Counted from the first letter of the stretch, positions 25,709 to 49,732 are shown. The stretch is 64,000 nucleotides of DNA from Chitinophagales bacterium (GCA_031425835.1 JANPKD010000028.1:12551-76550); one strand, 5' to 3'. Made by a program: numbers and translations. The notes: generated by a model not told the origin, from the letters alone.

Positions 25709-26053
25709 TCAGAAAAAATTATCCAGTGATTTAAGGCTGATTGGTTTCTCCCAAATGGTAAGTCTTGCGCCGTCAAGTTCAGAGGGCATGGTAGGGCGGA
25801 AGGCACTTATAAGATGGAACTCCACATCGGGATACCGCTGGTACAATTCGGGCAGTTTATCCCAGCCCAGTCCATCGGGTAAATTATAGTCTATAAAAAG
25901 ATAGTCTGGCTTAAGTTCACCCATGCGCACCACGCCGTTGGCTAGGGTGTGAGCTATATGAACGTCGTAGTTTTTGCGAAGGAAATACGTCTTCATAAGA
26001 AGACATAGATCTACTTCGTCATCGATTATCAATACTTTTTTTCTATTTGTCAT
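25709..26053 (-). CDS. Stand-alone response-regulator receiver protein (CheY-like)
   Basis: 114 aa with KKVLIIDDE, phospho-acceptor context LFIDYNLPDG and no output domain. Confidence 0.85.
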   Translation of the reverse strand: MTNRKKVLIIDDEVDLCLLMKTYFLRKNYDVHIAHTLANGVVRMGELKPDYLFIDYNLPDGLGWDKLPELYQRYPDVEFHLISAFRPTMPSELDGARLTIWEKPISLKSLDNFF

Positions 26054-26077
26054 AATGTTTGCTGCCGCTATTCATCC

Positions 26078-26092
26078 TAAATTATCGTACCA
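26078..26092 (-). promoter_or_regulatory. Variant -24/-12-type element TGGTACG-ATAA-TTTA upstream of the receiver gene
   Basis: 24 nt upstream of the ATG at 26053. It shares the 8-mer GGTACGAT with the sites at 26198 and 36414. Confidence 0.45.
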
Positions 26093-26197
26093 ATGCCGAA
26101 ACCAATAACTGTACCGGCTAACTCCAAAATTATGATTCATCTGTAGAATTATGTACCTAACTTTCTTTTCGAAATTGATAAACAACACTGCTAAACT

Positions 26198-26212
26198 TGG
26201 TACGATTATTTA
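26198..26212 (+). promoter_or_regulatory. Variant -24/-12-type element TGGTACG-ATTA-TTTA upstream of ytxH-like gene
   Basis: 45 nt upstream of the ATG at 26258, divergent from the copy at 26078-26092. Confidence 0.45.
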
Positions 26213-26257
26213 AACAATTTAGCTACATCATTCATTTACCTTAAAAATATTAAAGCT

Positions 26258-26515
26258 ATGACAACACAATCGAAAATTATCCTTGGTTTAGTAGGCGCCG
26301 CTGCAGCGGGTGTAGTAGTAGGTCTTCTTTTAGCACCTGATAAAGGTTCTGAAACTGTGAAGAAAGTAAAAGACACAGCTGGTACCTGGGCCGAGCATCT
26401 TACCGACCTGTTTGCAAACGCAAAAGATGAGGTGAGCAACCTTACAAAGAAGGGGTCCCGCGTTGCATCCGAAGCCGGAAACAAGTACAACAATATCACA
26501 GAAAGCTATAGCTAA
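26258..26515 (+). CDS. YtxH-domain general-stress-type protein
   Basis: 85 aa. N-terminal TM LGLVGAAAAGVVVGLLLAPDKGSETVKK, followed by an amphipathic helix. Confidence 0.8.
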   Translation: MTTQSKIILGLVGAAAAGVVVGLLLAPDKGSETVKKVKDTAGTWAEHLTDLFANAKDEVSNLTKKGSRVASEAGNKYNNITESYS

Positions 26516-28472: not shown

Positions 28473-29061
28473 GTTTGCTGAATGGGATGAGCAATTTTTT
28501 CATTCAACAAATTGGACCTCCATTGAGGAAAAATTTCTACCAAGAGGCAAAAAAAAACAACCTCAACAACCTACACTTGAGCGCAAAAACATGGTATGTT
28601 TTTTACACTATTATTCAAATCATTCGATACTTACGACTATTTGCTTCAGCAATTATTATTTTAAAATGAGCACATCCAGCAACAGAAATCATTCAATTTT
28701 AAAAACTGCAAGCCCCGGCAAACCCACTGTTCCATTTGGCCGCCAGCCATCTCCAGGGCAAAAAATCAATGATCCGTCGTCCTCATATCCCAAAGAGGAG
28801 CACTACCCCATCCCCTCTTTTTTAAAGTACACGATGAAAGCGTCTGAATTGGAATTGAGATCATAACTTAACCCTGGCCTGCTTGCCCACTTCAGGACGG
28901 CATCTTTGTGGAAAAAATCCTTTTCCTGTAGAGCCTTCTCCCCACTTTTCGGTGTATTTTCATAAACCTACATCCAGCTAGTCCCCGACTACCGGCCTCA
29001 TTGATAAATTTTTCCTTACTGGTAGCAAGTTCTGGCGAACTGTAGCATTAAAACCAATTTT

Positions 29062-29076
29062 TGGTTGCAGAGTTGT
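29062..29076 (+). promoter_or_regulatory. Weak sigma-54-like element TGGTTGC-AGAG-TTGT upstream of rpoN
   Basis: GG-N10-GT spacing, 29 nt upstream of the ATG at 29106. The -24 half is poor. Confidence 0.2.
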
Positions 29077-29105
29077 GTTCCATTTAAGGCCAAAATACAA
29101 GCGTC

Positions 29106-30521
29106 ATGATGAATCAACACCTTGCACAAAAACAAAGAATTAAAATTCTGCCTCAGCAAATTCAGTTACTCAATTTTTTTCATCTCAACACTCTGGAACT
29201 GGAACAACGAATTGAGCAGGAAATGGAGGACAACCCATTGTTGGAGGATCAGAACACCGAGTTTGAAGCCGACTCGGATAAGTTTAACAAGGACTCTGTT
29301 CAGGATTACCAGGATTGGGAAGAGCATGGCTACGACGATATACCCGACTACAAATTTGAGTACCAAAACTACCTGCACAACGACAAAGTACCCGAGCGGC
29401 CAATCTCGAACAGTTATGATTTTCGCCTGGCTTTAAAAGAACAGTACTGCGTAACTACAACCGAAGAGAAAGAAATTGTCTTCGCCCATTTTATAATTGA
29501 TTCGTTATCCGACGCAGGTTTGATGGAACAAAAGCTTGAAAGCCTTGCCGAAGACCTTTCGTTTAAATTGCACCGCTGGGTTGAAGAAGCCGATTTAGAG
29601 GCAATACTTTTAAAAATCCAGCAATTAGAACCTATTGGTATTGGCGCACGCAGCATTAAAGAATGCCTGTTGATACAGTTGCAACGCATGAATACAAAGC
29701 GGCCGGATGTAAAAACTGCCATTAACCTGCTCGATCAGCATTTTAATGATTTGCACAACCGCAACATGGACAAGATAAAAGCCCATTTAAACATTGATGA
29801 GGAAGAGTTGAAAATTGTTTTGCGATTGATTGCTTCACTAAAAATGCGCCCTGTTTGCGAAACGCAGGAAGGTGTGAACCAGAACATTATTCCCGATTTT
29901 ATAGTAACAAGAGTGGGCGACAATATTGAGGTGCAACTTTTTCGGCAGCGCAGCGAGGGCTTGAACATCAATACATCGTGGAAAGAAATGGCCGAGAATA
30001 ACGCCAAGGTTACTACCGATAAATCAGCCGTGCAGTACATCAAAAACAAATTGCAGTCGGCCCAGTGGTTTATACACGCAGTACAGCAAAGAGAAAGTAC
30101 TATGCTAAAAATAATGCGGTCGATTGTGGAAATGCAATTTGAATATTTTGTGACCGGGAACATTAACCTGCTTCAACCAATGATATTGAAAAACATTGCT
30201 GAAATAGTTGGGGTTGATATTTCAACCGTATCGAGAATTACCTGTAACAAGTACGCCGAAACACCTTTTGGATTAATATTGCTTAAAGATCTTTTTACCG
30301 AAGGTATCGCCAATCAAAAAGGCCAGGTCATCAGTAATAAGGTCATTCAATCGGCAATAGAAGAAGTAATAGAAACCGAAGACAAACATAATCCCTACAC
30401 CGATCAGCAACTGGTTAAAATCTTGAACCAAAAAGGATTTTCGGTTGCCCGGCGCACAGTGGCCAAATACCGCGAGCAGTTGCAAATACCGGTTTCGCAT
30501 GTCCGTGGTTTATGGGCATGA
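29106..30521 (+). CDS. rpoN: RNA polymerase sigma-54 factor
   Basis: Region I Q/L-rich start (LAQKQRIKILPQQIQLLNFF), acidic region II, core-binding region, HTH, and the RpoN box ARRTVAKYREQLQIP. Confidence 0.95.
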   Translation: MMNQHLAQKQRIKILPQQIQLLNFFHLNTLELEQRIEQEMEDNPLLEDQNTEFEADSDKFNKDSVQDYQDWEEHGYDDIPDYKFEYQNYLHNDKVPERPISNSYDFRLALKEQYCVTTTEEKEIVFAHFIIDSLSDAGLMEQKLESLAEDLSFKLHRWVEEADLEAILLKIQQLEPIGIGARSIKECLLIQLQRMNTKRPDVKTAINLLDQHFNDLHNRNMDKIKAHLNIDEEELKIVLRLIASLKMRPVCETQEGVNQNIIPDFIVTRVGDNIEVQLFRQRSEGLNINTSWKEMAENNAKVTTDKSAVQYIKNKLQSAQWFIHAVQQRESTMLKIMRSIVEMQFEYFVTGNINLLQPMILKNIAEIVGVDISTVSRITCNKYAETPFGLILLKDLFTEGIANQKGQVISNKVIQSAIEEVIETEDKHNPYTDQQLVKILNQKGFSVARRTVAKYREQLQIPVSHVRGLWA

Positions 30522-30588: not shown

Positions 30589-32079
30589 ATGCAAACCATT
30601 TTAATTATTGATGACGACAGGGACATGTGTATGTTACTTAAACGCTTCTTAACCCGTCATGGCTACGAAGTACTGGAAGCCTACACAGGCAAAAAATCGT
30701 TAGAACTCCTGGAAACTGTTGAGCCTTCGTTGGTGATGTGCGACTTTAGATTAGAGGACATGGAAGGCAATGTACTGCTTGCAAAAATAAAAGAACGTTA
30801 CCCGCATCTGCCCGTGATTATTATCACCGGCTATAGCGATATTAAAATGGCTGTGGAAGTAATGAAAATGGGCGCCTACGATTACATAACTAAGCCACTG
30901 TTTCCCGATGAAATTTTAGTGACTATTAAAAAAGCATTGGAGGCCGCCACCAAAGAAGCCAATGCACCTATCGGCAGTGTAGCCACCACCGCGGCAGCGC
31001 CACAAAAAACCGACCGACCTGCCTCCACCTCCACCGAAAAGCAACCGGTAATAACTGTTTCCGGCGATTATATTTTTGGCGACACGCCTGTATTCCGCCA
31101 AATTTTGCAGCAAATAGATTTGGTTGGCCCGACTAATTATACCGTTATCATTAATGGTGAAAGTGGCAGCGGTAAAGAAGCCGTGGCACAGGAAATTCAT
31201 AAACGCAGTAAAAGAAAGTCGAAACCATTCGTAGCAATTGATTGTGGTGCTTTATCTAAAGAGCTGGCGGGAAGCGAATTATTTGGTCACGAAAAAGGAT
31301 CATTCACCGGGGCACTCAATCAAAAAATGGGTTCGTTGGAAATGGCCAACGGCGGCACCATTTTTTTGGATGAAGTGGCCAACCTTTCTTACGATATTCA
31401 GGTGTCGCTGCTACGCGTGGTGCAGGAAAGAAAAATGCGCCGCGTAGGTGGTTTGAAGGACATTGAACTGGATGTGCGCATTATTATTGCCAGCAACGAA
31501 AAATTGTGGGATGCCGTACGCAAAGGCAAGTTTCGTGAAGATTTGTACCACCGCTTCAATGAATTTGGCATCGACATACCACCGCTGCGCCAACGGCCCG
31601 ATGACATCATGCTCTTCTCCAACCATTTTCTACAACAAACAAACGCCGAACTGGGCAAAAATGTAAAACGCTTTAGTCCGGAAGTGGAAAACATCTTTCG
31701 CACTTATGTTTGGTATGGTAACCTTCGGGAGTTGCGTAATGTAATTAAACGGGCCACTTTGCTGAACGACGGCGAAGAAATAGAAGCCAATTCCCTTCCA
31801 TTTGAAATAGCGCATTTCAGCAAACTACAATTTGATGCGACGCCAGAGCCGGCTGCGACCAATTCTATTCCTACCATTGCTACCGAAATTGCCGACTCGC
31901 CACGTAACATTTCGGAAACCACGTTAAAAGGCGCGAGTATAGATGCGGAATATGAAATGATTTTGAAAGCACTTAAAAAAGTAAACTTCAATAAAAGCAA
32001 AGCCGCCAAACTGCTGAACATTGACCGCAAGACTTTGTATAATAAAATGAAGCAGTACCAGGAATTCAACAACCAGTAA
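30589..32079 (+). CDS. Sigma-54-dependent response regulator (NtrC-type: REC + AAA+ + Fis-type HTH)
   Basis: REC (ILIIDDDRDM, CDFRLEDMEG). Walker A GESGSGKE, GSFTGA (a GAFTGA variant), Walker B FLDEV, and the arginine finger region. C-terminal HTH KSKAAKLLNIDRKTLYNKMK. Confidence 0.92.
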   Translation: MQTILIIDDDRDMCMLLKRFLTRHGYEVLEAYTGKKSLELLETVEPSLVMCDFRLEDMEGNVLLAKIKERYPHLPVIIITGYSDIKMAVEVMKMGAYDYITKPLFPDEILVTIKKALEAATKEANAPIGSVATTAAAPQKTDRPASTSTEKQPVITVSGDYIFGDTPVFRQILQQIDLVGPTNYTVIINGESGSGKEAVAQEIHKRSKRKSKPFVAIDCGALSKELAGSELFGHEKGSFTGALNQKMGSLEMANGGTIFLDEVANLSYDIQVSLLRVVQERKMRRVGGLKDIELDVRIIIASNEKLWDAVRKGKFREDLYHRFNEFGIDIPPLRQRPDDIMLFSNHFLQQTNAELGKNVKRFSPEVENIFRTYVWYGNLRELRNVIKRATLLNDGEEIEANSLPFEIAHFSKLQFDATPEPAATNSIPTIATEIADSPRNISETTLKGASIDAEYEMILKALKKVNFNKSKAAKLLNIDRKTLYNKMKQYQEFNNQ

Positions 32080-32093
32080 AACACCAAGGTTTT

Positions 32094-32567
32094 ATGCCCG
32101 ACCGAGCCGTGATTGATGCTGCAGCAACGCAGCCAGCCGAACAACATGGGGAGAAAAAGGTGTTTGTTGATTTAAATAAAATCATACAACAATGCCTTCT
32201 GAATTCTAGTTCGCTACAACGTGACCCCCGACCGGTTGTACGCTGTAGTAACCTCCCCGAAGTGGAGGGGGATGAGAGTGTCTTTGTTCGTCTGTTCGAT
32301 TTGCTGATCAAATCAATATTTAATCACCCGCCACCAGGTAAACAGCTTTTCCTGCATGTTGATTGCGAGCGGGTAAAGCAAATGCCTGCGGATGTTTCAG
32401 GTTTTCAAATAGACTTTTATACCAACCTGATTATTACAGACGACTGGATTGTAAAATACCAGCAATCCCTTTCACAGTGTCAAACAGAACTTGCGGAAAA
32501 CAATGCTGCACTCAAAATACACAATCCTCCTTCGCATGCCCGTTTGTTTACCATAACCTACCATTAA
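32094..32567 (+). CDS. Hypothetical protein, possibly a degenerate histidine-kinase ATPase-like domain
   Basis: 157 aa. LFDLLIKSIFNHPPPGKQLFLHV resembles an N-box region, but no G1/G2 nucleotide-binding boxes or HisKA are visible. Confidence 0.45.
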   Translation: MPDRAVIDAAATQPAEQHGEKKVFVDLNKIIQQCLLNSSSLQRDPRPVVRCSNLPEVEGDESVFVRLFDLLIKSIFNHPPPGKQLFLHVDCERVKQMPADVSGFQIDFYTNLIITDDWIVKYQQSLSQCQTELAENNAALKIHNPPSHARLFTITYH

Positions 32568-32583: not shown

Positions 32584-34026
32584 ATGCCTTCACAATTGCC
32601 GAGTATAAAAATTTTAATAATTGATGATGATGAGGACGACTTTTTTATTACCTCGCAATACCTCAAAGAAATAAAGGAATACCAGTTGCAGGTTGACTGG
32701 TGTTTTAAATTTTCGGATGCCGTTGAGCAATTACGGACAAGAAAATACCAGATCTATTTTGTTGATTACCGGCTGGGTGCAAGAACTGGTCTCGACTTTT
32801 TAAAAGAGGCTGTACAACTAAAAGTAGAAGAACCCATTGTATTGCTTACCGGAAAGGGAAGCAAAAATGTTGACATTGAGGCCATGCAAATGGGCGCAAC
32901 CGATTACCTGGTAAAAACGGAACTGAACCCCGATAAGCTGGAACGCTGCATCAGGTACTCTTTAGAAAGATCGACCTATTTAAAGGCGCTTAGAGCGAAT
33001 GAAAAAAAATACAGGGGCATTTTCGAACTATCAAAAGATGCCGTGTTCATAGCGGATAAAAACCTGCGGTTTATGGATATGAACAGGGCCACCTCGCAGT
33101 TATTTGGCTATGAAAAAAAAGAGCTGCAACAAACAACGGTTTACCAACTAATGGCCAATGCAGCCGACAAAAGTTTGTTGCAAAATTTAATGGATAGTGA
33201 GGGTGAAGTAAACGATTTGGAGATCAACCTGCAAACAAAAAGCGGCGAAAGAAAAACCTGTATTTTTTCTGCAACCGCCACAGTGGATGAAGGGCAAGAA
33301 CTTTTCCAGGGTTTGTTGCACGACGTTACAACTATGCGCCGGGCCGAAAAAGCAAATTTACAAATGGAGAAACTCGGTGCCACAGGCAGGCTTGTGCGTA
33401 CACTTGCACATGAGGTACGCAATCCCCTCAACAACATTAACATGTCGGTGGAGCAGCTCCTGCAATCATCGCAGGAAGAAGATGAGGCCCATCTGTTTCT
33501 CGATATCGTGCAGCGCAACAGTATTCGCATTGGTAACATTATTACCGAGCTGCTTGATACCTCCCGCCCAACAGATTTGGTGTTTGATGAAAACAACCTG
33601 CAGGAAATAATGGAAGAAGCACTTGCCGATGCAATTGACCGCGTTACACTACAGCAGGTTGTATTGCATAAGAATTATGCTGCTCAACCCTCTATCATTA
33701 TGGCCAACAGCGAAAAATTAAAGATTGCTTTTTTAAACATTGTTATTAATGCGGTTGAAGCATCGCCTGCAGGCACCGGACAGTTGAACATTAGTATAGA
33801 GCCTGTGAAAGACGGGCATGCGGTTGTGATTAAAGACAACGGTTGCGGCATACCGGAAGAAAATATTTCCCGCCTTTTTGAACCATATTTTACGTCTAAG
33901 CGAAATGGAATGGGCCTTGGCCTTGCAGCTACGCTCAACATTTTGCAATCGCACAAAGCAAATATCGATGTTATGTCGGCTGTGGGCAAAGGCACTACCT
34001 TCACCATTACTTTTCCTGCATTATAA
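32584..34026 (+). CDS. Soluble hybrid sensor: N-terminal receiver + PAS + HisKA + HATPase_c histidine kinase
   Basis: REC (ILIIDDDEDDFF, FVDYRLGARTG). PAS (YRGIFELSKDAVFIADKNLRFMDMN). H-box LAHEVRNPLNNI, N-box NIVINAVEA, G1 IKDNGCGI and G2 GMGLGLA. No TM segments. Confidence 0.9.
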   Translation: MPSQLPSIKILIIDDDEDDFFITSQYLKEIKEYQLQVDWCFKFSDAVEQLRTRKYQIYFVDYRLGARTGLDFLKEAVQLKVEEPIVLLTGKGSKNVDIEAMQMGATDYLVKTELNPDKLERCIRYSLERSTYLKALRANEKKYRGIFELSKDAVFIADKNLRFMDMNRATSQLFGYEKKELQQTTVYQLMANAADKSLLQNLMDSEGEVNDLEINLQTKSGERKTCIFSATATVDEGQELFQGLLHDVTTMRRAEKANLQMEKLGATGRLVRTLAHEVRNPLNNINMSVEQLLQSSQEEDEAHLFLDIVQRNSIRIGNIITELLDTSRPTDLVFDENNLQEIMEEALADAIDRVTLQQVVLHKNYAAQPSIIMANSEKLKIAFLNIVINAVEASPAGTGQLNISIEPVKDGHAVVIKDNGCGIPEENISRLFEPYFTSKRNGMGLGLAATLNILQSHKANIDVMSAVGKGTTFTITFPAL

Positions 34027-38172: not shown

Positions 38173-38572
38173 GACCCTAAAGTCGGACTGTATGTATGGC
38201 GGGGACGGATCATTCGATTAGTTTTTTTCAGTTTTTTTCACCGAACATTTGTCGCAGTAATTCCGGAGTTATGTTTCTCTTTCACTGCTTCAGTTTATAG
38301 CATCGGGGGGCCACATACAAGGCAACCGGTGTTTATGAACGCTTTAAAAAATCAGAAATCTTAATGACCATCACTTGCCAAGGGGCAGCTAATTCAACAA
38401 CAACGTAATTAATTGTCAGAATCAAAGTTCTATGTGTCCGCACTGTGTCTTGCAATTGCTGCGTGGGTCATTACGATCGTATGTACTGGGTTGCAGTGAG
38501 GTGCAAATGTGTGTAGATAAACTTCCACAGCGAGCGGGGGCTTGTGGCTTTCTATAAAGGCAAGGCTGATTG

Positions 38573-38587
38573 TGGTACTCAATTTGA
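38573..38587 (+). promoter_or_regulatory. Near-canonical sigma-54-type promoter TGGTACT-CAAT-TTGA for the Ku/LigD operon
   Basis: GG-N10-GA spacing, with the G of the -12 GC conserved. It lies 31 nt upstream of the ATG at 38619 and is divergent from the site at 38158-38172. Confidence 0.5.
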
Positions 38588-38618
38588 ACTGATGCCTACA
38601 GAAAACTAAATATTTTTT

Positions 38619-39110
38619 ATGGCTGCTCATTACCAACTCAATTTTATACAGGATAAAATTGCACAAATCCAAAGTGCAATTTGCTTCAATCTAAGTGATT
38701 CTGTTTTAAAGTTACCTACCAGTGTTATTACAACTTTAAAGGTTGATGACTATGGCTTCGTGTGGTTTATGATGCAAAAGCCAAAGCAGTGTTTGAAGGA
38801 ATTTGAGGATGAGTTTCCGGTACGCCTTGATTATTTCAAAAAAGGAATCAATTCGTTTTTACAGGTGTCGGGTAAGGGATGTGTCGTATGCGACCCGGAG
38901 GAACTAAACACCCTCGGTTTATCGGACGACGCATTCAAATCCTTCAATGCTCAAAAAGATGTGCTGGTAAAAGTAAAAATATTGAAGGCAGAATGCTACG
39001 ATACTACACCCACCTCCAGCCACTCCTGGTTTAAAAACCGGTTAACAGCAATTACAAAATGGCTGCATCACAATAATTATGGACGACAAATTTATTATCC
39101 AGCCTCCTAA
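38619..39110 (+). CDS. Pyridoxamine-5-phosphate-oxidase-like / general stress protein 26-like protein (tentative)
   Basis: 163 aa with a split-barrel-like pattern (VITTLKVDDYGFVWFMM...FLQVSGKGCVV...VKVKILKAECY). The assignment rests on resemblance only. Confidence 0.5.
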   Translation: MAAHYQLNFIQDKIAQIQSAICFNLSDSVLKLPTSVITTLKVDDYGFVWFMMQKPKQCLKEFEDEFPVRLDYFKKGINSFLQVSGKGCVVCDPEELNTLGLSDDAFKSFNAQKDVLVKVKILKAECYDTTPTSSHSWFKNRLTAITKWLHHNNYGRQIYYPAS

Positions 39111-39122
39111 AAATATTTAAGT

Positions 39123-39899
39123 ATGCATGTAATATGGTCTGGCGCAATAAGCTTTGGTTTAGTAAATATTCCCGTTAAATTGAGTAGTGCAGTTGAAAGC
39201 GGAAGTGAATTGAACTTCGACATGCTTTCTAAAAAAGACATGGCACCGATACGTTACGCAAGAATTGATACGAAGACTGAAAAAGAAGTTGAGTGGAAAA
39301 ATATTGTAAAGGGTTATGAGTATGCCAAAGGAAAATATGTTGTGATTACAGATGAGGATTTTGAAAAAGCCAGGGCCGAAAAATCGCACACGATAGAAAT
39401 TCTGCAGTTTGTAAAAGAGGAAGAGATTAACCCTATTTACTACGAAAAGCCCTACTATGTTTCTCCCGATAAAGGCGCCGGCAAATCGTACCAGCTAATT
39501 ATAAAGGCACTTGAAAAAACCAAAACGGTTGGCCTTGCCGAGTTTATGTTGCGTAACCGCATGCACCTCTGTGCTTTAAAAGTACACGAGGGTGTTTTGT
39601 TGCTCAACCAAATGCGCTACCACGATGAGTTGAGGGAGGTGCCCGCCATCGCCGGTACTAAAGCCGAAATATCCGTGAAGGAAGTGGACCTGGCAGTAAA
39701 ACTAATTCACCAGCTTACCGAAAAGTTTGAGCCAACCGCTTTCAAAGACAATTATATAGCCGCTCTAAAAAAAGTGATAAAATCAAAAGCCTCAGGCAAA
39801 ACTCTGCGCATAGCCGAACCTGTAAAAAAATCGGCCACAGTAAAAGATTTAATGGAGGTGCTCAAACAAAGCCTCGAAACAAAAAAGAAAACGGCCTAA
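39123..39899 (+). CDS. ku: Ku protein (non-homologous end joining)
   Basis: IWSGAISFGLVNIPVKL.SA......F.ML.......IRY.......KEVEW..IVKGYEY..GKYV core, with a basic C-terminal tail. Confidence 0.93.
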   Translation: MHVIWSGAISFGLVNIPVKLSSAVESGSELNFDMLSKKDMAPIRYARIDTKTEKEVEWKNIVKGYEYAKGKYVVITDEDFEKARAEKSHTIEILQFVKEEEINPIYYEKPYYVSPDKGAGKSYQLIIKALEKTKTVGLAEFMLRNRMHLCALKVHEGVLLLNQMRYHDELREVPAIAGTKAEISVKEVDLAVKLIHQLTEKFEPTAFKDNYIAALKKVIKSKASGKTLRIAEPVKKSATVKDLMEVLKQSLETKKKTA

Positions 39900-39960: not shown

Positions 39961-41664
39961 ATGTCACTTTCAGTTTACAATAAAAAAAGAAATTTTAAAG
40001 TCACCACTGAACCCGTTGGAAAAGAAAAAACGGCAAAAGGCAAACTCCGGTTTGTTGTTCAAAAACACGACGCCTCGCACCTCCACTACGACTTTCGGTT
40101 GGAGATAGAAGGTGTGCTAAAAAGTTGGGCGGTACCAAAGGGCCCGTCGCTAAACCCAGCCGACAAACGGCTTGCAATGGCCGTGGAAGATCATCCTTTC
40201 GATTACAGAAATTTTGAGGGAATTATACCGGAAGGCAACTATGGTGGCGGCACGGTAATCGTTTGGGATGAAGGCACATACCAACCAGTTGGGGGGGAGC
40301 ATTTAACAAAAGCCGAACAGGAAAAATTACTCCTTACCCAACTAAAAGACGGCAGCTTAAAAATTATTGTACATGGAGAAAAGTTAGGCGGCGAGTTTGC
40401 TTTGTTTTTAATGAAGGGCCGTGGCGAACGGTCGTGGATATTGATGAAAAAGAAAGATGAGTTTTCCACCACCGCAAATGTTCTATTGGAGGATGCCTCG
40501 GTAAAATCGGGAAAAACGCTGGCCGAAGTAGCCGCTGAAAATGGTACGGTAATCAAACACCCCGAAGAAGCAAAACCCAGTAAAAAAGAAAAACCAAAAG
40601 CACCGGAATTATTGCCTAAAAAAACAGCAGCAGGCAAAAAAACAAAAGCGCCGAAACAAAAAACAACATCTGAAACTGTTGCGGGTAAAAAAAAGAAGGC
40701 GTCTCCAAAAATAAAAACATCGGGGCTGCAGATAGACATAACTGCGGGTGCCGATCAGACAATTGTTATCGATAAACATGAGCTGACTATTACCAGCCTC
40801 AATAAATTGTACTGGAAAAAAGAAAAGTTTAGCAAGGGCGATACCATCAATTATTATTTGCAGGCAGCACCCTATATTTTGCCGTACATGATCGGCAGGC
40901 CACAATCGCTCAACAGGCACCCGAACGGAATTGATGGACCCAGTTTTTATCAAAAAGACATGAAGGGAAAACTGCCGGAGTGGATGGAAACGCACAAAGA
41001 CTTTTCTGAATCAACCAGCAAAACAGTGGAGTATTTGGTGTGCAGTAACGAGGCAACTTTAATTTACATGGCCAATTTGGGTTGTATAGAAATGCATCCC
41101 TGGCATTCGCAAACGGCAAACTGGCAAAACCCTTACTGGTGCCTGATTGACCTGGATCCCGATACAAAAAACAGTTTTGCCCAGGTGATGGAAACAGCCC
41201 TGGTTACAAAAAATATTTTAGACGATATAGGTGCGGACAGTTACATAAAAACCTCAGGCTCCACGGGGCTCCATATTTATATTCCACTTGCCGCGCAATA
41301 CAGTTTCGATCAGTCGAAACAATTAGCCGAACTGGTTGTAAATCTTGTAAACGACCAGCTGCCTGAAACAACAAGCGTTGAACGAACACCGGCAAAAAGA
41401 AAAGGGAAAATTTATCTTGATTATTTACAAAACCGGGAAACCCAAACCGCAGCGGCGCCATATTCTTTACGGCCAAAACCTGGGATGCCTGTATCAACCC
41501 CCCTGCATTGGAGCGAAATAAAAAAAGGTTTGACGGCAACTACATACAACGCAAAAAATATTTTTGAACGTTTAAAAACCGAAGGTGATTTGTTTGCCCC
41601 CGTTTTGGGGAAAGGCATCAACCTGAAAAAAGTATTGGCTAATTTAACGGCCTTAATAAAATGA
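39961..41664 (+). CDS. ligD: LigD-type protein with 3-prime-phosphoesterase and polymerase/primase domains but no ligase domain
   Basis: PE domain RFVVQKHDASHLHYDFRLE..GVLKSWAVPKGPS. A Lys/Pro-rich linker follows. Pol domain LTITSLNKLYW...GRPQSLNRHPNGI...FYQKD...IDLDPD...SGSTGLHIYIPL...KIYLDYLQN. I see no adenylation KxDG motif anywhere in the 567 aa. Confidence 0.88.
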   Translation: MSLSVYNKKRNFKVTTEPVGKEKTAKGKLRFVVQKHDASHLHYDFRLEIEGVLKSWAVPKGPSLNPADKRLAMAVEDHPFDYRNFEGIIPEGNYGGGTVIVWDEGTYQPVGGEHLTKAEQEKLLLTQLKDGSLKIIVHGEKLGGEFALFLMKGRGERSWILMKKKDEFSTTANVLLEDASVKSGKTLAEVAAENGTVIKHPEEAKPSKKEKPKAPELLPKKTAAGKKTKAPKQKTTSETVAGKKKKASPKIKTSGLQIDITAGADQTIVIDKHELTITSLNKLYWKKEKFSKGDTINYYLQAAPYILPYMIGRPQSLNRHPNGIDGPSFYQKDMKGKLPEWMETHKDFSESTSKTVEYLVCSNEATLIYMANLGCIEMHPWHSQTANWQNPYWCLIDLDPDTKNSFAQVMETALVTKNILDDIGADSYIKTSGSTGLHIYIPLAAQYSFDQSKQLAELVVNLVNDQLPETTSVERTPAKRKGKIYLDYLQNRETQTAAAPYSLRPKPGMPVSTPLHWSEIKKGLTATTYNAKNIFERLKTEGDLFAPVLGKGINLKKVLANLTALIK

Positions 41665-42715: not shown

Positions 42716-44899
42716 TTACGAATTTTGAACATACCGTTTTTCTTTTTCAAGATATTCGTGCATGGCCTGCTCAAAGGAAGGAAGTTGTTGCCCATGCTGA
42801 CTGCCTAGTACAGAATATAGCGGACGTTTGGCCGCATAATTTATCTGGGTTGCGTTTACCGCCTGAATTAAAAATTTATCAAGGCCAAGATGGTCGGCAA
42901 TCATGTTTGCAAATCCACTCCAGCTTATTGATCCTTTGTTAGCCAAATGCCAAATTCCTTTCTCGCTATCAATCAATAAATCCAGCGTTGTATTTACCAG
43001 GTGGGGCACATAAGTGGGCGAAATAAAAATATCATTTGCTACAGTCACTGTTTGAAATTGGGATAGGGTTTTGCGAACGTGGTGCACAAAGTTGAATTCA
43101 TCCCACGGACTAAAAAATGCGCTTGTGCGAATGATTAACGAAGAAGGAAATTCTTTAAGTATGATGGCCTCTGCATCTGCCTTGCTTTTACCATACACAT
43201 TTAAAGGGTTGGGGATATCACATTCTATATAGGGCGTTGACTTTTCCCCGTCGAAAACTAAATCACTCGAAAAACTTACTAGCTGGAGGCCTTTTTTGTT
43301 ACAGGTAATTGCAAGGTTTTGAGAGCCTGTTGTATTGGCGTGGATACAATCTGCTATGTTGTTTTCAGCCTCATCAACTTTTACATAACCGGCAGCATTG
43401 ATGATTGCCCACGGCCTGTATGTAGCAACGACTTGTTCAATGGAATGCAGATTAGTGATGTCACATTCGTTCCGGCTAAGTAGATGATAAGGTATGCTAC
43501 GGCTTTTGCAAACTTTGGCCAACGCTCTGCCCAGGGTTCCATTTTTTCCTATAATTAAAAGGGGTGCAATGCTTTTTTCCACGTTTGTTATTACACGATC
43601 AGGGGGCCCATAAATCAATCTTGAGTTTCTGCGCCACCAACCATCTTGTTCAGATAAGATTGGATGACCATTTTTATTCTGAGAAAGGTCTTTAATAAAT
43701 TTTGCCAATGCGGTTGGTCTTAGGTCCCCACATCTTACATCAAAAGCACCGGGTTCGTAGTCACCCTCGTCTTGTATCAATAGTTTGTTCCAGCCGTAGG
43801 CACCCAGCAAAGCCCAGGTTGTAACTGCTCTTATTTGTACACCTGCCTTCTTTAATTTACCAGTTACCTCGTACACTTCTTTAAACCAACGCAGCTGCTC
43901 TTCGCGGTGGCAATGCAAATGCACTTCTGTAATAGCAATAGGTTGCCCATATCTTTCCCATGCCTCTTTTAATAATACTTCAATGCCCGTTTTTTCACCA
44001 ACGCTCACCCGCACGGCTTCCACATCGGCATACCTATGTTGTGCGTTTCCTCCATGCGTATGTTTTGGGTAGAGCTCTAAGTTTTCATCCAAATATCTTT
44101 CCGATGTGAGGTAATGATTAAAACCAAAAACATCAGGCACACAAGGATTTTCTAAAAAAAAATGCAAGTCGCTTTCTGCGATGCCAACATCTTTAAAATG
44201 CTGCCACAAATAATGTTGTTCATTTAATTTCCCGCAAAGAATATCAAACGTTATCCACCTTCGTTCATTTTCAAAATAAGCCTGGTATTTTAATTGTTCG
44301 GTGCTATACGTTTTGCCGAGATCTTCTGTTTGTATGAGCTGTGCCGCAGGATTTATTTTTCTTATCTCCCGCATTGACAGTACCACACCTTTCAACTGAT
44401 GCAACAGCATTTGCAAATATGCCTTTGCCGATTTTTTATGTGGATACCATAGACCATAAAGGCCACTAAATCTTGCTGTAGTTAATGGCTCATTTACCGG
44501 GGTATAAAATTGAATCCAGGGAAATTTCTGTGCAACTTTTTTGGCATAATCTGCCAGCAGCAGCGGAAAGTTATCATCTAACAAGTTAGTAAAAGCCGGC
44601 CCGCTTCCATGGTGTACAAGACCGGCAATTACATCAATGTTTTTTTGTTTGAGGAGCTGCAATTGCTTTTGCGTCCAACCCCAGTCAATGGCTGCATCTT
44701 TTTCGGGCTGATGTTTTTCCCAAAGAATTGGGTAGCGGAGTTTTTTAATTCCAAGAGTTGCAATTTGTTCAATATCGCCTTCGCGTTGATAATGCCCGGC
44801 GAACCGCAACTGATCAAAAAATTTATTTCCAACCCTGTTGATAGTGCACTCAATTCCGCCCCATATTTCCGGATTGCAATATGGTGTGTGATTGTCCAT
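42716..44899 (-). CDS. Fusion protein: N-terminal clan GH-A TIM-barrel glycosidase-like domain plus C-terminal RmlD-like (dTDP-4-dehydrorhamnose reductase fold) domain
   Basis: N-terminus has IWGGIECT, YTPVNEPLT (acid/base Glu context) and IAITEVHL (nucleophile Glu context). C-terminus has LLIIGKNGTLGRAL (Rossmann), INAAGYVKVDEAE and YGKSKADAE (YxxxK). No signal peptide. Confidence 0.8.
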   Translation of the reverse strand: MDNHTPYCNPEIWGGIECTINRVGNKFFDQLRFAGHYQREGDIEQIATLGIKKLRYPILWEKHQPEKDAAIDWGWTQKQLQLLKQKNIDVIAGLVHHGSGPAFTNLLDDNFPLLLADYAKKVAQKFPWIQFYTPVNEPLTTARFSGLYGLWYPHKKSAKAYLQMLLHQLKGVVLSMREIRKINPAAQLIQTEDLGKTYSTEQLKYQAYFENERRWITFDILCGKLNEQHYLWQHFKDVGIAESDLHFFLENPCVPDVFGFNHYLTSERYLDENLELYPKHTHGGNAQHRYADVEAVRVSVGEKTGIEVLLKEAWERYGQPIAITEVHLHCHREEQLRWFKEVYEVTGKLKKAGVQIRAVTTWALLGAYGWNKLLIQDEGDYEPGAFDVRCGDLRPTALAKFIKDLSQNKNGHPILSEQDGWWRRNSRLIYGPPDRVITNVEKSIAPLLIIGKNGTLGRALAKVCKSRSIPYHLLSRNECDITNLHSIEQVVATYRPWAIINAAGYVKVDEAENNIADCIHANTTGSQNLAITCNKKGLQLVSFSSDLVFDGEKSTPYIECDIPNPLNVYGKSKADAEAIILKEFPSSLIIRTSAFFSPWDEFNFVHHVRKTLSQFQTVTVANDIFISPTYVPHLVNTTLDLLIDSEKGIWHLANKGSISWSGFANMIADHLGLDKFLIQAVNATQINYAAKRPLYSVLGSQHGQQLPSFEQAMHEYLEKEKRYVQNS

Positions 44900-46025
44900 T
44901 GATTATTTTTCCATTAACAAAGGTTTCTTCCTTTTCCCCCTGCATTATTTTTTTAAATGTTGACAACGCCTGTGCCACTACCTGGTCCATATTATAGTAT
45001 TTGTAAGTAGCCAACCTACCTACAAAATATGTATTTGACGTAGCCTCGGCTAGCTGCTGATATTTTTTATACATGGCTGCATTTTCCGACCTTGGTACCG
45101 GGTAATATGGATCACCTTCTGCTTTCGGAAATTCATAAACAATTGCCGTTTTTGGGTGCACCTGGCCAGTTAAATATTTGAAATCGGTGATGCGGGTGTA
45201 CAGTTGTTCGTTTGGATAATTAATTGTGCCGGTAGATTGAAAAACTTCTTTGTCTATTGTTTCAAATTTAAATTCCAACGATCTGTATGGAAGTTTGCCA
45301 AAACAATAATCAAAGTACTCATCAACCGGGCCGGTATACACTACACTTTCGTGAGGTATTAAATCAAGAATGTCCCTGAAATCTGTGTTCAACATCACTT
45401 TAATGTTTTTGTGGGAGAGCATCCTTTGAAACATTTGAGTATATCCATGCAACGGCATGGCCTGGTAAGTATCGGTAAAGTAACGGTCATCTCTATTTGT
45501 TCTTGTGGGCACACGTGCAGTTACACTTGCATCCAGCTGAGACGGATCGAGATCCCACATTTTTCGGGTGTACCCCTTAAAAAATTTCTCGTAAAGTTCC
45601 CTTCCTACTTTGCTCACCACCACGTCTTCCGACGTTTTCAACCCTGATACCTTTTCGGCTTTTGATGCAAAGAAAGCTTCTACCTCATCGCTGCTCAAAT
45701 TCAAACCATACAATTGGTTAATGGTATTTAAGTTGATGGGAATTGGAACTAACTGCCCATCCACACTTCCTAAAACCTTGTGTTCATAAGGCCTCCACTC
45801 GGTAAATTTTCCCAGGTACTCAAAAACTTCTTTTGAATTAGTGTGAAAGATATGCGGACCGTATTTATGAATTAAGATGCCATCATTATTATAATAATCA
45901 AAAGCGTTACCGGCAATGTGTTCTCTTTTATCGATGATCAATACCTTTTTATTTGCCTGGGTTGCCAGGCGTTCGGCAACTACACTTCCCGCGAACCCTG
46001 CGCCTACAATTAAATAATCAAACAT
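44850..46025 (-). CDS. glf: UDP-galactopyranose mutase
   Basis: FDYLIVGAGFAGSVVAERL FAD-binding fold, GPHIFHT, and YEFP...GDPYYPV. Its 3-prime end overlaps the next gene by 50 nt. Confidence 0.92.
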   Translation of the reverse strand: MFDYLIVGAGFAGSVVAERLATQANKKVLIIDKREHIAGNAFDYYNNDGILIHKYGPHIFHTNSKEVFEYLGKFTEWRPYEHKVLGSVDGQLVPIPINLNTINQLYGLNLSSDEVEAFFASKAEKVSGLKTSEDVVVSKVGRELYEKFFKGYTRKMWDLDPSQLDASVTARVPTRTNRDDRYFTDTYQAMPLHGYTQMFQRMLSHKNIKVMLNTDFRDILDLIPHESVVYTGPVDEYFDYCFGKLPYRSLEFKFETIDKEVFQSTGTINYPNEQLYTRITDFKYLTGQVHPKTAIVYEFPKAEGDPYYPVPRSENAAMYKKYQQLAEATSNTYFVGRLATYKYYNMDQVVAQALSTFKKIMQGEKEETFVNGKIINGQSHTILQSGNMGRN

Positions 46026-47199
46026 ACTTTTTCTCCTTCGTTAAGAATTTTAAATCGATGTTCTGTAAATAAGTTTTTTCAATGTTCTTTACCATATTAC
46101 CCCATGTTCTGTCCCAGGAATTGAAGGCTAAAAATTCATCAACATTTTTAAGCCATGCTGTTTTGCGTTTCTTAGCCAACTCTTTTTCCGCTGCCGTAAT
46201 AAATTCCGACGCATTACTTACTATATGCACCAGTTTATTATCGCCATAAGGAGAAACAACATCTTTTATTGGTGTAGAAATAACAGGCTTGCCAGCGGCC
46301 AAATACTCCGGTGTTTTGGTTGGAGAGATATACTTTGTCGATTCGTTCATTGCAAAGGGAATTGTGGCAATATCCCATCCTGCCAGGTAAGCGGGCAACT
46401 CTTCGTATTTTTTTCCACCGAGGTAATGAACGTTTGAATAGTGCGGTAGTGTGGCCTCATCAATTTTTACAATGGGCCCGAGTATAACAAAGTGCCAGTC
46501 TGGTTTTTGTTTTGCTACGCCATCGAGCAATTCAATATCGAAACGTTCATCTACCACACCGAAAAAACCAAAGCGGGGGTGGGGAATGTTTTTTTGGTCT
46601 TCAGGGTCTTTGTTGATTGTCCTAGCAGCACCAAAATGAGCTTTATCTATACTGCTGGGTACTGAAAAGATATTATGATGCGCATTTTTTTTAGACTCGT
46701 AAATACTATTACCGCCTGTAAAAACAATATCGGCTTTTTTAAAAAGTTCTTTTTCTAAGATGCCTAACTGGGGAGGTGCAAACTTAAATGCCGATAACTC
46801 ATCCATACAATCGTACACAACAAACTCAGGCTCCAGCTCATCAGTAAAAGGCAAAGCCATTGGTGTATAGTACCAGCTGAAAAAGCGATCAATATTCATT
46901 TTCTCAAATAGCATTGCCAGCAATTTTCTTTGCCTTGACACCACCTCATTTTCATCAAGGTTATGTTGTATGAGGGGGGTGATTACAAATAAATTCTCGT
47001 TGTAATTCTCAATCTGTATTCTATCCGGTTGGTCGTGAAAAACAGGCTCTTCAATAAAAAAAACACGTTGGTGTTTAGAGAACCGGATAAGCAAATGATT
47101 AGGACGCTGAAAGACAAATCCCCATCGAAGATGAGAGAAACACACGAGATCAATGTCTTTTAAAAAAGCACATGAAATTTCTTCAATGTTTTTGATCAT
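46018..47199 (-). CDS. Glycosyltransferase (GT-B fold, family 1/4-like), first gene of the glf operon
   Basis: LVCFSHLRWGFVFQRPNHLLIRFSK N-terminus, typical of glf-linked GT-B enzymes. EX7E-like region ISPTKTPEYLAAGKPVIST. It overlaps the glf start by 8 nt. Confidence 0.75.
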   Translation of the reverse strand: MIKNIEEISCAFLKDIDLVCFSHLRWGFVFQRPNHLLIRFSKHQRVFFIEEPVFHDQPDRIQIENYNENLFVITPLIQHNLDENEVVSRQRKLLAMLFEKMNIDRFFSWYYTPMALPFTDELEPEFVVYDCMDELSAFKFAPPQLGILEKELFKKADIVFTGGNSIYESKKNAHHNIFSVPSSIDKAHFGAARTINKDPEDQKNIPHPRFGFFGVVDERFDIELLDGVAKQKPDWHFVILGPIVKIDEATLPHYSNVHYLGGKKYEELPAYLAGWDIATIPFAMNESTKYISPTKTPEYLAAGKPVISTPIKDVVSPYGDNKLVHIVSNASEFITAAEKELAKKRKTAWLKNVDEFLAFNSWDRTWGNMVKNIEKTYLQNIDLKFLTKEKKYV

Positions 47200-47211
47200 T
47201 CTTATGTCGAT

Positions 47212-47226
47212 GCTATTTATGTGCCA
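47212..47226 (-). promoter_or_regulatory. Canonical sigma-54 promoter TGGCACA-TAAA-TAGC(A) for the GT / glf / GH-RmlD operon
   Basis: TGGCAC-N5-TAGCA matches 10 of 11 consensus positions with exact GG-N10-GC spacing. The -12 C is at 47212, so the predicted start is near 47200, 1 nt before the ATG at 47199, giving a leaderless transcript. Confidence 0.7.
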
Positions 47227-47479
47227 GCTACAACTAATGCTAAAAATTACCTCTGCATTAATAACATGCGTATTTGCTGTAGAAATTGATGCTCATTTAA
47301 CGGACATGCACACACTATTAGTTTTATAATTGAGAAATTGCAAATGTTGAAGCAAAAAGGATTGCACACAATGTGTATGTTGGTACCCGATCATAGCAAA
47401 ATGCGAACAGTGTTTGACAAATACCGAGTGCTATATGGTAATGTTTCAACAAGAAATGACTCCTGAAAACTTTTACAAA

Positions 47480-47494
47480 TGGCATCATAGTTTT
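47480..47494 (+). promoter_or_regulatory. Variant -24/-12-type element TGGCATC-ATAG-TTTT
   Basis: 36 nt upstream of the ATG at 47531. Confidence 0.3.
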
Positions 47495-47530
47495 CGGATA
47501 AAAAATGTTTTAAATTCTTACCATTAAAAA

Positions 47531-47977
47531 ATGCTAGTAGAAAATTCAAAAGGCCGTTCTTCAAACGGTGGTGGCCGTAGCGACGATCAACGCGAAAGTA
47601 AAACTCAAAAAGCTACCTCAGGCCAAGAAACAAAAAAGAGAGGCCAGACCGATGACAGCTCCAGTAACAGCAACTCAAGAAGCAGCACCGATTCAGGTCG
47701 CGGAAATGGCGGGGTCATAGTCGTTAAGAAGAGGAGTCTTTTTTTAATGCCGGTAATCAGGCTACTTTTTTTTGCACCTGATTTTTCATGCGCAAAAATT
47801 CTTTTAGAAAATCAACCTCCTTCTGCAAATAAGCCTCGCCGTTTTCGCGAAAAATATCATGAAACCAGAGTTCCGGTTCGTTTAAATATTCTTTGCTCCA
47901 CGAATCCCATGGACAATGGGTTTGCGATTTACCAGCAACCAGCCCCCAGTTGTAAGCGCCTATATTATATTCCTTAA
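47531..47977 (+). CDS. Questionable ORF: Gly/Ser/Arg-rich hydrophilic N-terminal ~70 aa, with the remainder antisense to the GH5-like gene
   Basis: The N-terminal part MLVENSKGRSSNGGGRSDDQRESKTQ...DSGRGNGG resembles small stress-protein composition and has an upstream motif. However, the frame stays open for 220 nt across the convergent gene, which argues against the full ORF. Confidence 0.25.
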   Translation: MLVENSKGRSSNGGGRSDDQRESKTQKATSGQETKKRGQTDDSSSNSNSRSSTDSGRGNGGVIVVKKRSLFLMPVIRLLFFAPDFSCAKILLENQPPSANKPRRFREKYHETRVPVRLNILCSTNPMDNGFAIYQQPAPSCKRLYYIP

Positions 47978-49183: not shown

Positions 49184-49732
49184 TTACTCCGCCGCGGCCT
49201 CGTAGTTGATGTTATTCTCAGCAATGTCTGTAAGGAGCATATCAGTTTCCTTTTCTTCATTAAGTGTTTGCTCCAATAACTCCGCAGCCTCAGCATGACC
49301 AAGCGTTTCGGCCAATTGCCGTAGTCCGCCGTAAGTGGCAATTTCGTAATGCTCCACTTTTTGCGCCGCCAGTATCAAGCCTACATCCCGCGTAGAGGTA
49401 CCCGCATCTGTGTCTTCAATAATACCTTCGCCTTCTTTGATAAGGCCTTCGATGGCTTCGCATTTTTTTGCGCTGGCCTTTGCTCCAATTGATTGAAACA
49501 CCTGTTCAAGCCGGGTAACCTGCTCTTTTGATACTGCTAAATGATCTTCAAATGCGGCCTTCAGCTTATCCGAAGTGGCTGCCTTTTGCATTTTGGGAAG
49601 CGCCTTAATAATTGCCTTTTCCGCATAATACACGTCTTTCAAAGAATCGAGAAAAAGTTCCTGCAGCAAAGCATCACCCTGTGCTGCTCCTGCGTTTTTT
49701 GGTTGTTTTGTTTTTGAAGTTGTCTTTGCCAT
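49184..49732 (-). CDS. DUF892 (YciE/YciF-like) ferritin-like stress protein
   Basis: LKDVYYAEKAIIKALPKM...AFEDHL..SKEQV.RLEQVF...CEAIEGLI.EGE......AAQKVEHYEIATYG.L pattern. Confidence 0.85.
   Translation of the reverse strand: MAKTTSKTKQPKNAGAAQGDALLQELFLDSLKDVYYAEKAIIKALPKMQKAATSDKLKAAFEDHLAVSKEQVTRLEQVFQSIGAKASAKKCEAIEGLIKEGEGIIEDTDAGTSTRDVGLILAAQKVEHYEIATYGGLRQLAETLGHAEAAELLEQTLNEEKETDMLLTDIAENNINYEAAAE

Follow-up and report, generated by a model that had tools for sequence, protein, structure and literature searches.

Can a sugar operon be read from a sigma-54 promoter that lies so close to its first gene that the mRNA begins with the start codon itself? The question is raised by a 64,000-nt stretch of DNA from a Chitinophagales bacterium (GCA_031425835.1 JANPKD010000028.1:12551-76550), hereafter the window, in which three overlapping minus-strand genes for a glycosyltransferase (GT), a UDP-galactopyranose mutase (Glf) and a two-domain fusion protein begin 11 nt downstream of a -24/-12 element of the sigma-54 type. 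A first-pass annotation had described this element as a canonical sigma-54 promoter driving a leaderless, galactofuranose-forming operon. Here, we compare the locus with its relatives and find the element in 31 distinct promoter sequences of Chitinophagaceae, always behind an 18-bp quasi-palindrome (Box A) that also precedes five more units in the window. On this comparative evidence we consider it probable that the sugar operon is the leaderless member of an activator-dependent sigma-54 regulon of the general-stress type.

A conserved promoter element before the sugar operon

The operon and its control region comprise the following features.

46018-47199, minus strand: GT4-type glycosyltransferase (GT), TuaH-like, 393 aa, the first gene of the operon
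44850-46025, minus strand: UDP-galactopyranose mutase (Glf), TIGR00031, 400 bits against a cutoff of 304
42716-44899, minus strand: fusion protein of a GH1-like TIM barrel and an RmlD-like reductase domain, 727 aa
47226-47211, minus strand: sigma-54-type -24/-12 element, TGGCAC-ATAAA-TAGCA (TGGCACATAAATAGCA)
47199-47200, minus strand: predicted transcription start, by analogy, at the first base of the ATG (47199) or one position before it
47295-47278, minus strand: Box A, candidate activator-binding site, TGAGCATCAATTTCTACA, 85% pairwise identity
47277-47227, minus strand: A/T-rich spacer of 51 nt, near-fixed in length, 39–42% identical in sequence

The element at 47226-47211 agrees with the consensus TGGCAC-N5-TTGCW at 10 of 11 positions and has the GG-N10-GC spacing, as the first-pass annotation stated, and the 11 nt that separate it from the ATG at 47199 read tcgacataaga. 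Taken alone, this single match is only marginally above chance and not significant: the 64-kb window has one occurrence of the pattern TGGCACN5TWGCW where 0.15 would be expected, and shuffling the window produced one or more matches in 14 of 100 trials. A scan for the GT gene, with one genome per species, returned 31 loci. The motif is kept at the same position in 17 Chitinophagaceae genome loci (from Flavisolibacter, including the cultured F. nicotianae and F. longurius at L008-L011, and from Paracnuella, Parafilimonas and Flaviaesturariibacter), in 18 metagenome loci and in a 4.56-Mb contig (L158; numbers preceded by L are our handles for loci), and the promoter alignment contains 31 distinct Chitinophagaceae sequences.

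The family consensus is TGGCAT-GTAAA-TAG[C/T]A, starting 27 nt before the ATG. In all 31 sequences the GG, the -12 G and the flanking T and A are unchanged and 11 nt separate the element from the ATG; after the -12 G, 19 sequences have C and 12 have T. Pairwise identity averages 92% over the 16-mer, 53% over the 11-nt linker and 39–42% over the 50-nt spacer upstream. The element is thus retained before orthologous operons, but the epithet ‘canonical’ does not suit a family that has TGGCAT as its consensus and T in place of C at -12 in 12/31 members. Within 60 nt upstream of the Acidobacteriota, Planctomycetota and Proteobacteria orthologs the motif is not present; most Acidobacteriota orthologs have a Shine-Dalgarno-like GGAG upstream of the gene instead.

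The transcription-start map of Flavobacterium psychrophilum offers a comparison within the phylum. Its SM4 promoter class is assigned to sigma-54, and the remF promoter is confirmed by mutagenesis (PMC9723704). Members of the class include TTGGCAC-GATAG-TTGAA (skp), TTGGCAT-AATTT-CTGAA (groS), TTGGAAT-AACAA-TTGAC (clpB), ATGGCAC-AATCC-TTGAC (lon) and TTGGCAC-GATTT-TAGTT (remF), along with TCGGCAT-ATTGT-TTGTA and TTGGCAT-TACTT-TTGCA (PMC9723704). The mapped form is TTGGCA[C/T]-N5-T[T/A]G-N, with any base after the G and with TGGCAT as common as TGGCAC. Since the base after the G varies in mapped promoters, the C/T change at -12 is normal for the phylum. This comparison supports a sigma-54-type identity for the 16-mer, as first proposed, and so does the constancy of its GG, its -12 G and its 11-nt spacing from the ATG across all 31 promoters. 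A Bacteroidetes housekeeping promoter had been named as the alternative; its -7 box, TAnnTTTG, has no exact match within 300 nt upstream in 18/18 loci.

Other readings of the 16-mer were set aside. A hairpin or palindrome TTGCT...AGCAA around it occurs at some Flavisolibacter loci only, and in L012-L016 the left flank changes and the motif does not. A LacI-like palindrome or a Pho-box-like direct repeat is disfavoured by the location 11 nt before the ATG and by the asymmetric conservation.

Prediction of the start site

The GG of the F. psychrophilum promoters occupies -26/-25 in skp, groS and clpB and is shifted by one base in one direction or the other in remF and lon (PMC9723704); the register of the published table was checked with skp (start 753817, ATG 753811). 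With the second G of the present element at 47224, this register would place +1 at 47199, the A of the ATG. The base at -1 is C in 29/31 sequences and that at -2 is G in 27/31, and positions -9 to -6 are A/T-rich and TATA-like. The C at -1 and the G at -2 form a preferred pyrimidine/purine start context, which agrees with a +1 on the ATG.

The start codon is ATG in 31/31 sequences. The first 30 coding bases are 80% identical, with 95% identity at codon positions 1 and 2 against 65% at position 3 over the first 10 codons, and an in-frame TAA stop lies two codons upstream. Both the codon-position pattern and the upstream stop argue that this ATG is the real start; at the protein level the N-terminus MIKNIEE is conserved, the variation falling at the third codon position. 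A leaderless product is plausible in this phylum because 5.5% of F. psychrophilum mRNAs are leaderless and the leader of the sigma-54-driven skp mRNA is only 6 nt long (PMC9723704). Hence, we infer that the mRNA of the GT operon is leaderless and starts on or 1 nt before the ATG, in keeping with the geometry that the first-pass annotation had suggested.

A palindromic box upstream of the element

Box A has the consensus TGAGGAcgaaTTTCTACA and is found in all Chitinophagaceae loci; its general form, TGWRGA-N6-TCYWCA, is an 18-bp quasi-palindrome. From the end of the box to the TGG there are 50, 51 or 52 nt in 14, 15 and 2 of the 31 sequences. In more diverged relatives the gap is 51 (L017), 61–62 (L019, L020 and L027) or 71 (L016). 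At L017, L027, L019 and L020 the distance of the -24 element from the ATG ranges from 38 to ~270 nt, whereas its position relative to Box A is maintained. As the element follows the box and not the ATG at these loci, the conserved unit is box plus promoter, which argues for a device acting at the DNA level. At compact loci, Box A is closely preceded by an intrinsic terminator.

Enhancer sites had initially been sought in two copies of TGCACACA. The copies at 47307-14 and 47363-70 do exist, but on the plus strand, and the enhancer role falls away: the sequence is absent from orthologous upstream regions and occurs three times in the window where 3.4 copies are expected. Box A itself was considered as a sigma-A or extracytoplasmic function promoter, which was rejected for its unsuitable spacings and the lack of TAnnTTTG. 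Strict helical phasing of Box A was also dropped; it holds for the GT orthologs (50–52, 61–62 and 71) and only roughly between promoter classes. Nor were further regulon members obtained from 120 metagenome matches to Box A, which consist of 18–19 GT promoters and of chance-like matches in coding DNA.

Two further observations concern the box. In Flavisolibacter GT promoters a further element is conserved, CTATGCCAAA, which is TTTGGCATAG in reverse complement and so an inverted copy of the -24 half; it stands ~12–15 nt upstream of Box A in L004, L006, L007 and L009 and ~35 nt upstream in L001 and L002; it is not in the window. L142 (661-828), from a high-GC Shine-Dalgarno user, has an exact Box A and, after a gap of 54 nt, TGGCATGGAACTTGTC, which precedes clpB by ~57 nt. 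The clpB gene is a sigma-54 target in F. psychrophilum (PMC9723704). This site may be due to chance, with ~0.3–0.4 such sites expected among chance matches.

Further units behind the same box

The first-pass annotation treated the promoter as isolated. It is one member of a multi-operon set, in which Box A and TGG[C/T]A[C/T] precede five more units of the window: a receiver-only response regulator, a YtxH cluster, a 66-aa open reading frame (ORF), a PNPOx-like/Ku/LigD operon and a DUF892 gene.

28524-28541, plus strand: Box A' TGAGGAAAAATTTCTACC, followed after a 50-nt gap by TGGTATGTTTTTTACA at 28592-28607, before the 66-aa ORF (28666-28866)
38512-38588, plus strand: TGTAGATAAACTTCCACA, 43-nt gap, TGGTACTCAATTTGAA, before the genes for a PNPOx-like protein (38619-39110), Ku (39123-39899) and a LigD-like protein (39961-41664)
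49831-49757, minus strand: AGTAGCCAATGATACACA, 41-nt gap, TGGCATTATTTTTTTG, 24 nt before the ATG of the DUF892 gene (49184-49732)
26077-26213: shared box TGTAGAATTATGTACCTA (26142-26159) between two divergent promoters, found by eye
26092-26077, minus strand: TGGTACGATAATTTAG, promoter of the 114-aa receiver-only response regulator (25709-26053)
26198-26213, plus strand: TGGTACGATTATTTAA, promoter of the YtxH gene (26258-26515) and downstream genes

Each class of composite is kept in 3–5 other genomes. The Box A' composite, which was found by a position-weight scan with Box A and has a poorly defined -12 part, recurs in L152, L154, L156, L159 and L160 with gaps of 49–52 and 61. The PNPOx-like/Ku/LigD composite recurs in L161-L164 with gaps of 40–41 and a good -12 TTGGA; at the same four loci the DUF892 gene and the Ku operon diverge from one common box, the DUF892 side having TGGCAT and a T-run 36–37 nt from it. 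The divergent arrangement of response regulator and YtxH is found again in L156, L159 and L160. It is the boxes across these units that make the quasi-palindrome TGWRGA-N6-TCYWCA evident, and Box A appears to act in either orientation, as expected for the site of a dimeric helix-turn-helix protein. A scan for both parts (box with at most one mismatch, allowed gaps, TGG[C/T]A[C/T]) gave four hits in the window, all intergenic and correctly oriented, and in Markov simulations a mean of 0.4 and a maximum of 2. Downstream of the GT operon of Ginsengibacter (L027, 7683, minus strand) lies another composite, TGTAGAAAGTTCTACACA, 60 nt, TGGCATATTTTTTTCT, 21 nt and ATG, so the two-box system reaches beyond Flavisolibacter.

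The 66-aa ORF belongs to a family of 66–72-aa proteins (window 28666-28866, plus strand; L152 4525-4725; L159 2514-2717) that has no Pfam match and shares ...DPSS..PK.ERYPIP.FFEYR.... With a Box A composite of its own and an intrinsic terminator after it in most genomes, it is probably a monocistronic member of the regulon. The LigD-like protein of the window (39961-41664, plus strand, 567 aa) has phosphoesterase and primase-polymerase domains and no ligase domain; its orthologs in L161, L163 and L164 are 903–954 aa long and have all three.

The rpoN gene cluster

The composite before the 66-aa ORF adjoins a cluster of four plus-strand genes.

29106-30521, plus strand: rpoN (sigma-54), with the Pfam domains Sigma54_AID, CBD and DBD and the RpoN box ARRTVAKYR at residue 448
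30589-32079, plus strand: NtrC-family activator, candidate Box A binder, with receiver, AAA+ (Sigma54_activat) and HTH_8 domains and GSFTGA at residue 237
32094-32567, plus strand: 157-aa ORF of unknown function, between the activator and kinase genes
32584-34026, plus strand: hybrid histidine kinase, receiver-PAS-HisKA-HATPase, last gene of the cluster

Gene order and composite are kept together in six genomes (the window and five others). What had been a guess, that the activator at 30589-32079 is involved, has thereby become plausible, and its adjacency to the 66-aa ORF composite makes it the most likely protein to bind Box A.

The ORF at 32094-32567 represents a family of 154–167 aa that has no Pfam match and always stands between the activator and hybrid kinase genes. 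Upstream of rpoN there is a sigma-54-like motif that has no box, TGGTTGCAGAGTTGTG (GG-N10-GT; 29062-29077, plus strand), 28 nt before the ATG. In L154, L156, L159 and L160 the corresponding motif reads TGG-N4-[CT]AC[A][CG]-TTGTC and lies 27–29 nt from the ATG. The rpoN gene may be autoregulated.

The sugar operon and its surroundings

The three-gene operon stands as first described, with overlaps of 8 nt (GT and Glf) and 50 nt (Glf and fusion), and so does the cytoplasmic appearance of its enzymes: membrane-like segments are absent from all three proteins (over 19 residues, Kyte-Doolittle values reach at most 1.19). The GH1-like domain of the fusion retains the NEP and ITE motifs. A sequence search of solved structures found only RmlD and GH1 relatives for the fusion and nothing for the GT. 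Among the 119 closest of >8000 database relatives, the GT is 75–83% identical, and the source-named entries among these 119 are Flavisolibacter or Flavitalea; in eight Acidobacteriota loci the identity is 56–58%.

Galactofuranose formation is not supported as the defining feature of the family. The glf gene is inside the operon in the window, L002, L003, L005, L016, L017, L027, L158 and the truncated L001, follows the fusion gene in L019 and L020, and is missing from the operon in L004 and L006-L015. In Chitinophagaceae the fusion gene is always adjacent to the GT gene or one gene away, making GT and fusion the constant pair.

In L017 (5413) and L027 (1757) the first 15 residues of the GT (MIKNIEEISCAFLKD), as counted from 47199 in the window, are absent and the promoter lies 38 nt upstream of the shorter GT ORF. 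The long-leader loci L019 and L020 keep the full-length N-terminus. From this distribution, the N-terminal extension may have been recruited from a former leader.

Some relatives have a SET-domain gene between a GH5-like gene and the GT operon (L158, 2273-2887). In the window its place is taken by a 557-nt stretch (47300-47757), which includes both copies of TGCACACA and in which tblastn found no remnant of a SET-domain pseudogene. Divergent from the GT operon lies a Gly/Ser/Lys-rich low-complexity ORF (MLVENSKGRSSNGGGRSDDQ...; 47531-47977, plus strand), whose 3' part overlaps the end of the GH5-like gene and whose extent is a prediction only. It is preceded by TGGCATCATAGTTTTC (47480-47495, plus strand), in the style of the DUF892 promoters, and the palindrome ACACAATGTGT reported by the first-pass annotation lies ~100 nt upstream of that motif.

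Proposed mechanism

RNA polymerase with RpoN (29106-30521) would bind 47226-47211 as a closed complex. An enhancer-binding protein that recognises its site as a dimer would dock on Box A, the centre of which is ~87 bp upstream of the start site, contact the polymerase across the fixed 51-bp A/T-rich spacer and use ATP hydrolysis to open the promoter. For this role the NtrC-type protein at 30589-32079 is the most likely candidate, and its input may come from the hybrid kinase at 32584-34026. The predicted first nucleotide of the transcript is the A of the ATG (47199) or the one before it, and the GT-Glf-fusion mRNA would be translated from its 5'-terminal AUG. The putative Box A regulon would comprise the sugar operon, the receiver-only response regulator, the YtxH cluster, the 66-aa ORF, the PNPOx-like/Ku/LigD operon and the DUF892 gene.

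This content resembles that of general-stress regulons, and it leads us to guess that the cytoplasmic GT-(Glf)-fusion enzymes make a stress-protective glycoside or glycan. A wider proposal is offered tentatively, as possible and short of probable: Chitinophagaceae, which are not known to have sigma-B, RpoS or EcfG systems, might run a general-stress or dormancy response through sigma-54, with the rpoN-activator-kinase cluster and a single 18-bp palindrome switching on Ku/LigD non-homologous end joining (NHEJ), YtxH, DUF892, the PNPOx-like protein, the 66-aa protein and the leaderless GT-(Glf)-GH1/RmlD pathway.

Several observations weigh against an activator-dependent sigma-54 regulon of this kind. 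The pattern used in the two-box scan was derived from the very sites that it recovered, and conservation in other genomes is consequently the independent support for the set. The sites before the 66-aa ORF, DUF892, YtxH and response regulator genes have a T-run and no clear -12 G, making them weak sigma-54 matches. Box A is near the promoter, 36–52 bp from the -24 element, and steps of one helical turn describe the gaps of the classes (36–39, 40–43 and 49–53) only roughly. No extra targets came from the 120 metagenome matches to the exact Box A consensus. In addition, at none of the 31 loci is an activator gene found within 6 kb of the GT operon, and in one 4.56-Mb contig the rpoN cluster is 2.6 Mb from it. 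The assignment of the activator therefore depends on one adjacency.

Alternative explanations

The last two points would also fit a real sigma-54 promoter with Box A bound by a regulator other than 30589-32079, which could be another enhancer-binding protein elsewhere in the genome, an architectural protein or a repressor. The activator gene has only one of the six composites as its neighbour, and the target of that composite is a small ORF with a terminator behind it. Yet the cluster and its composite are conserved together in six genomes, and an activator gene adjacent to its own target is a common pattern in the enhancer-binding-protein family; we regard a different binder as unlikely. Another explanation dispenses with sigma-54 and takes Box A and the TGGCAT box as operators of one or more independent factors, for example a repressor or an OmpR/PhoB-like protein that covers the translation start, with transcription of the operon coming from a promoter not yet recognised or reading through from the GH5-like gene upstream. 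It would account for the N5 spacer GTAAA, which is conserved beyond the needs of sigma-54 recognition, and for the several sister sites that have no -12 G. TGGCA/TAGCA can indeed be read as a Pho-box-like direct repeat with an 11-bp period, the 16-mer is partly palindromic (5/8 symmetric pairs), and in L158 only 113 nt separate the SET-domain gene from the GT gene, with no terminator seen in the stretch read. However, the GG and the G 10 nt downstream are invariant, and a Pho-box-type activator site that ends 11 nt before the ATG would put the start inside the gene. TAnnTTTG is absent within 300 nt at 18 loci, intrinsic terminators stand closely upstream of Box A at compact loci, and one composite adjoins both rpoN and the activator gene. 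Independent operators are therefore unlikely in our judgement.

The fixed distance of the 16-mer to the AUG could also reflect a function in RNA, as a motif of the 5' untranslated region or a translational operator beside the AUG, and RNAalifold does pair the motif with the start codon (CAUG/CAUG). Between Box A and the ATG, however, no conserved structure is found (-1.56 kcal/mol, five pairs, no covarying or compensatory changes), and Rfam gives no match near any gathering score. At L017, L027, L019 and L020 the motif is displaced to 38 to ~270 nt from the AUG and keeps its relation to Box A, and the two-box layout precedes unrelated genes at other distances from the AUG, which leaves an RNA-level role very improbable. 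Practically no weight is left for a chance match to the sigma-54 consensus: such matches do arise, in 14% of shuffled windows, but the idea is refuted by comparison, as 31 distinct sequences from several genera have the site in the same place, with diverged flanks. Activator-dependent sigma-54 control of a leaderless sugar operon is the explanation that we favour.

Relation to known systems

There is ample precedent for sigma-54 promoters, for enhancer-binding proteins and for sugar-polymer genes under sigma-54 control (PMC3162934), also in Bacteroidetes (PMC9723704). As judged from sequence comparison, the present system appears to differ in four respects: its predicted leaderless geometry is conserved, its only palindromic box is close to the promoter, the putative regulon contains stress and DNA-repair genes, and it is tied to an rpoN-activator-kinase cluster.

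The glnAp2-NtrC, nifH-NifA and pspA-PspF promoters share with the present one the GG-N10-G(C) core, a palindrome upstream, here a candidate site for an AAA+ activator that would bind as a dimer, and two-component input, here by way of the receiver domain of the putative activator and a kinase. Unlike them, the GT promoter has TAG[C/T]A instead of TTGC at -12 and a single 18-bp box 50 bp from the -24 element, its transcript is predicted to be leaderless and the activator gene is not beside the operon. Upstream activating sequences as close as ~-80 are known from pspA.

The SM4 promoters of F. psychrophilum, including that of remFG-sprCDBF, come from the same phylum and have the same TTGGCA[C/T]-N5-T[T/A]G-N form (PMC9723704). 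A further common point is that their targets include stress and envelope genes (PMC9723704). The present set comes from another family, Chitinophagaceae, and has other targets, and no upstream box is reported for SM4. Sugar-polymer and envelope biosynthesis genes are recurrent sigma-54 targets in general (Francke et al. 2011, PMC3162934). By comparison, the operon described here has no membrane segment or export partner, and its association is with DNA repair and stress instead of flagella or lipopolysaccharide.

In gene content, the Box A set is similar to the sigma-B, RpoS and EcfG/RpoE2 stress regulons. Hallmark members of these are YtxH and the PNPOx protein Gsp26 (Bacillus subtilis sigma-B), the DUF892 proteins YciE/YciF (Escherichia coli RpoS) and Ku/LigD (alphaproteobacterial RpoE2); we take the PNPOx-like protein of the window to be Gsp26-like and its DUF892 protein to be YciE/F-like. 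The means of control would differ, with a sigma-54-type promoter, an activator box and ATP-dependent activation in place of sigma-factor replacement.

Leaderless mRNAs such as that of lambda cI and those of Sinorhizobium meliloti require a 5'-terminal AUG, and the GT start codon is ATG in 31/31 sequences. In S. meliloti, 171 leaderless mRNAs have been mapped (PMC3616915). None of the known leaderless examples that we found is linked to a sigma-54 promoter, and the F. psychrophilum map does not draw attention to any sigma-54 transcript that lacks a leader altogether (PMC9723704). In the literature searched, which is incomplete, we found no described case of leaderless mRNAs with sigma-54 or RpoN, and no description of NHEJ with RpoN, of Bacteroidetes stress with sigma-54 or of Chitinophagaceae with RpoN.

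Implications

The Box A set is a candidate for the control of stress-type genes, including end-joining DNA repair, in a large soil-dwelling branch of Bacteroidota, for which the literature searched describes no regulator. It defines an 18-bp box together with a candidate activator. For the uncharacterised but highly conserved pair of GT and GH1/RmlD fusion it suggests a stress context, which would narrow the search for their product. In this family, the position of a sigma-54 promoter seems to have been maintained through a long stretch of evolution such that the mRNA would start with AUG, which would link the start-site mechanics of sigma-54 to leaderless translation in a phylum without Shine-Dalgarno pairing.

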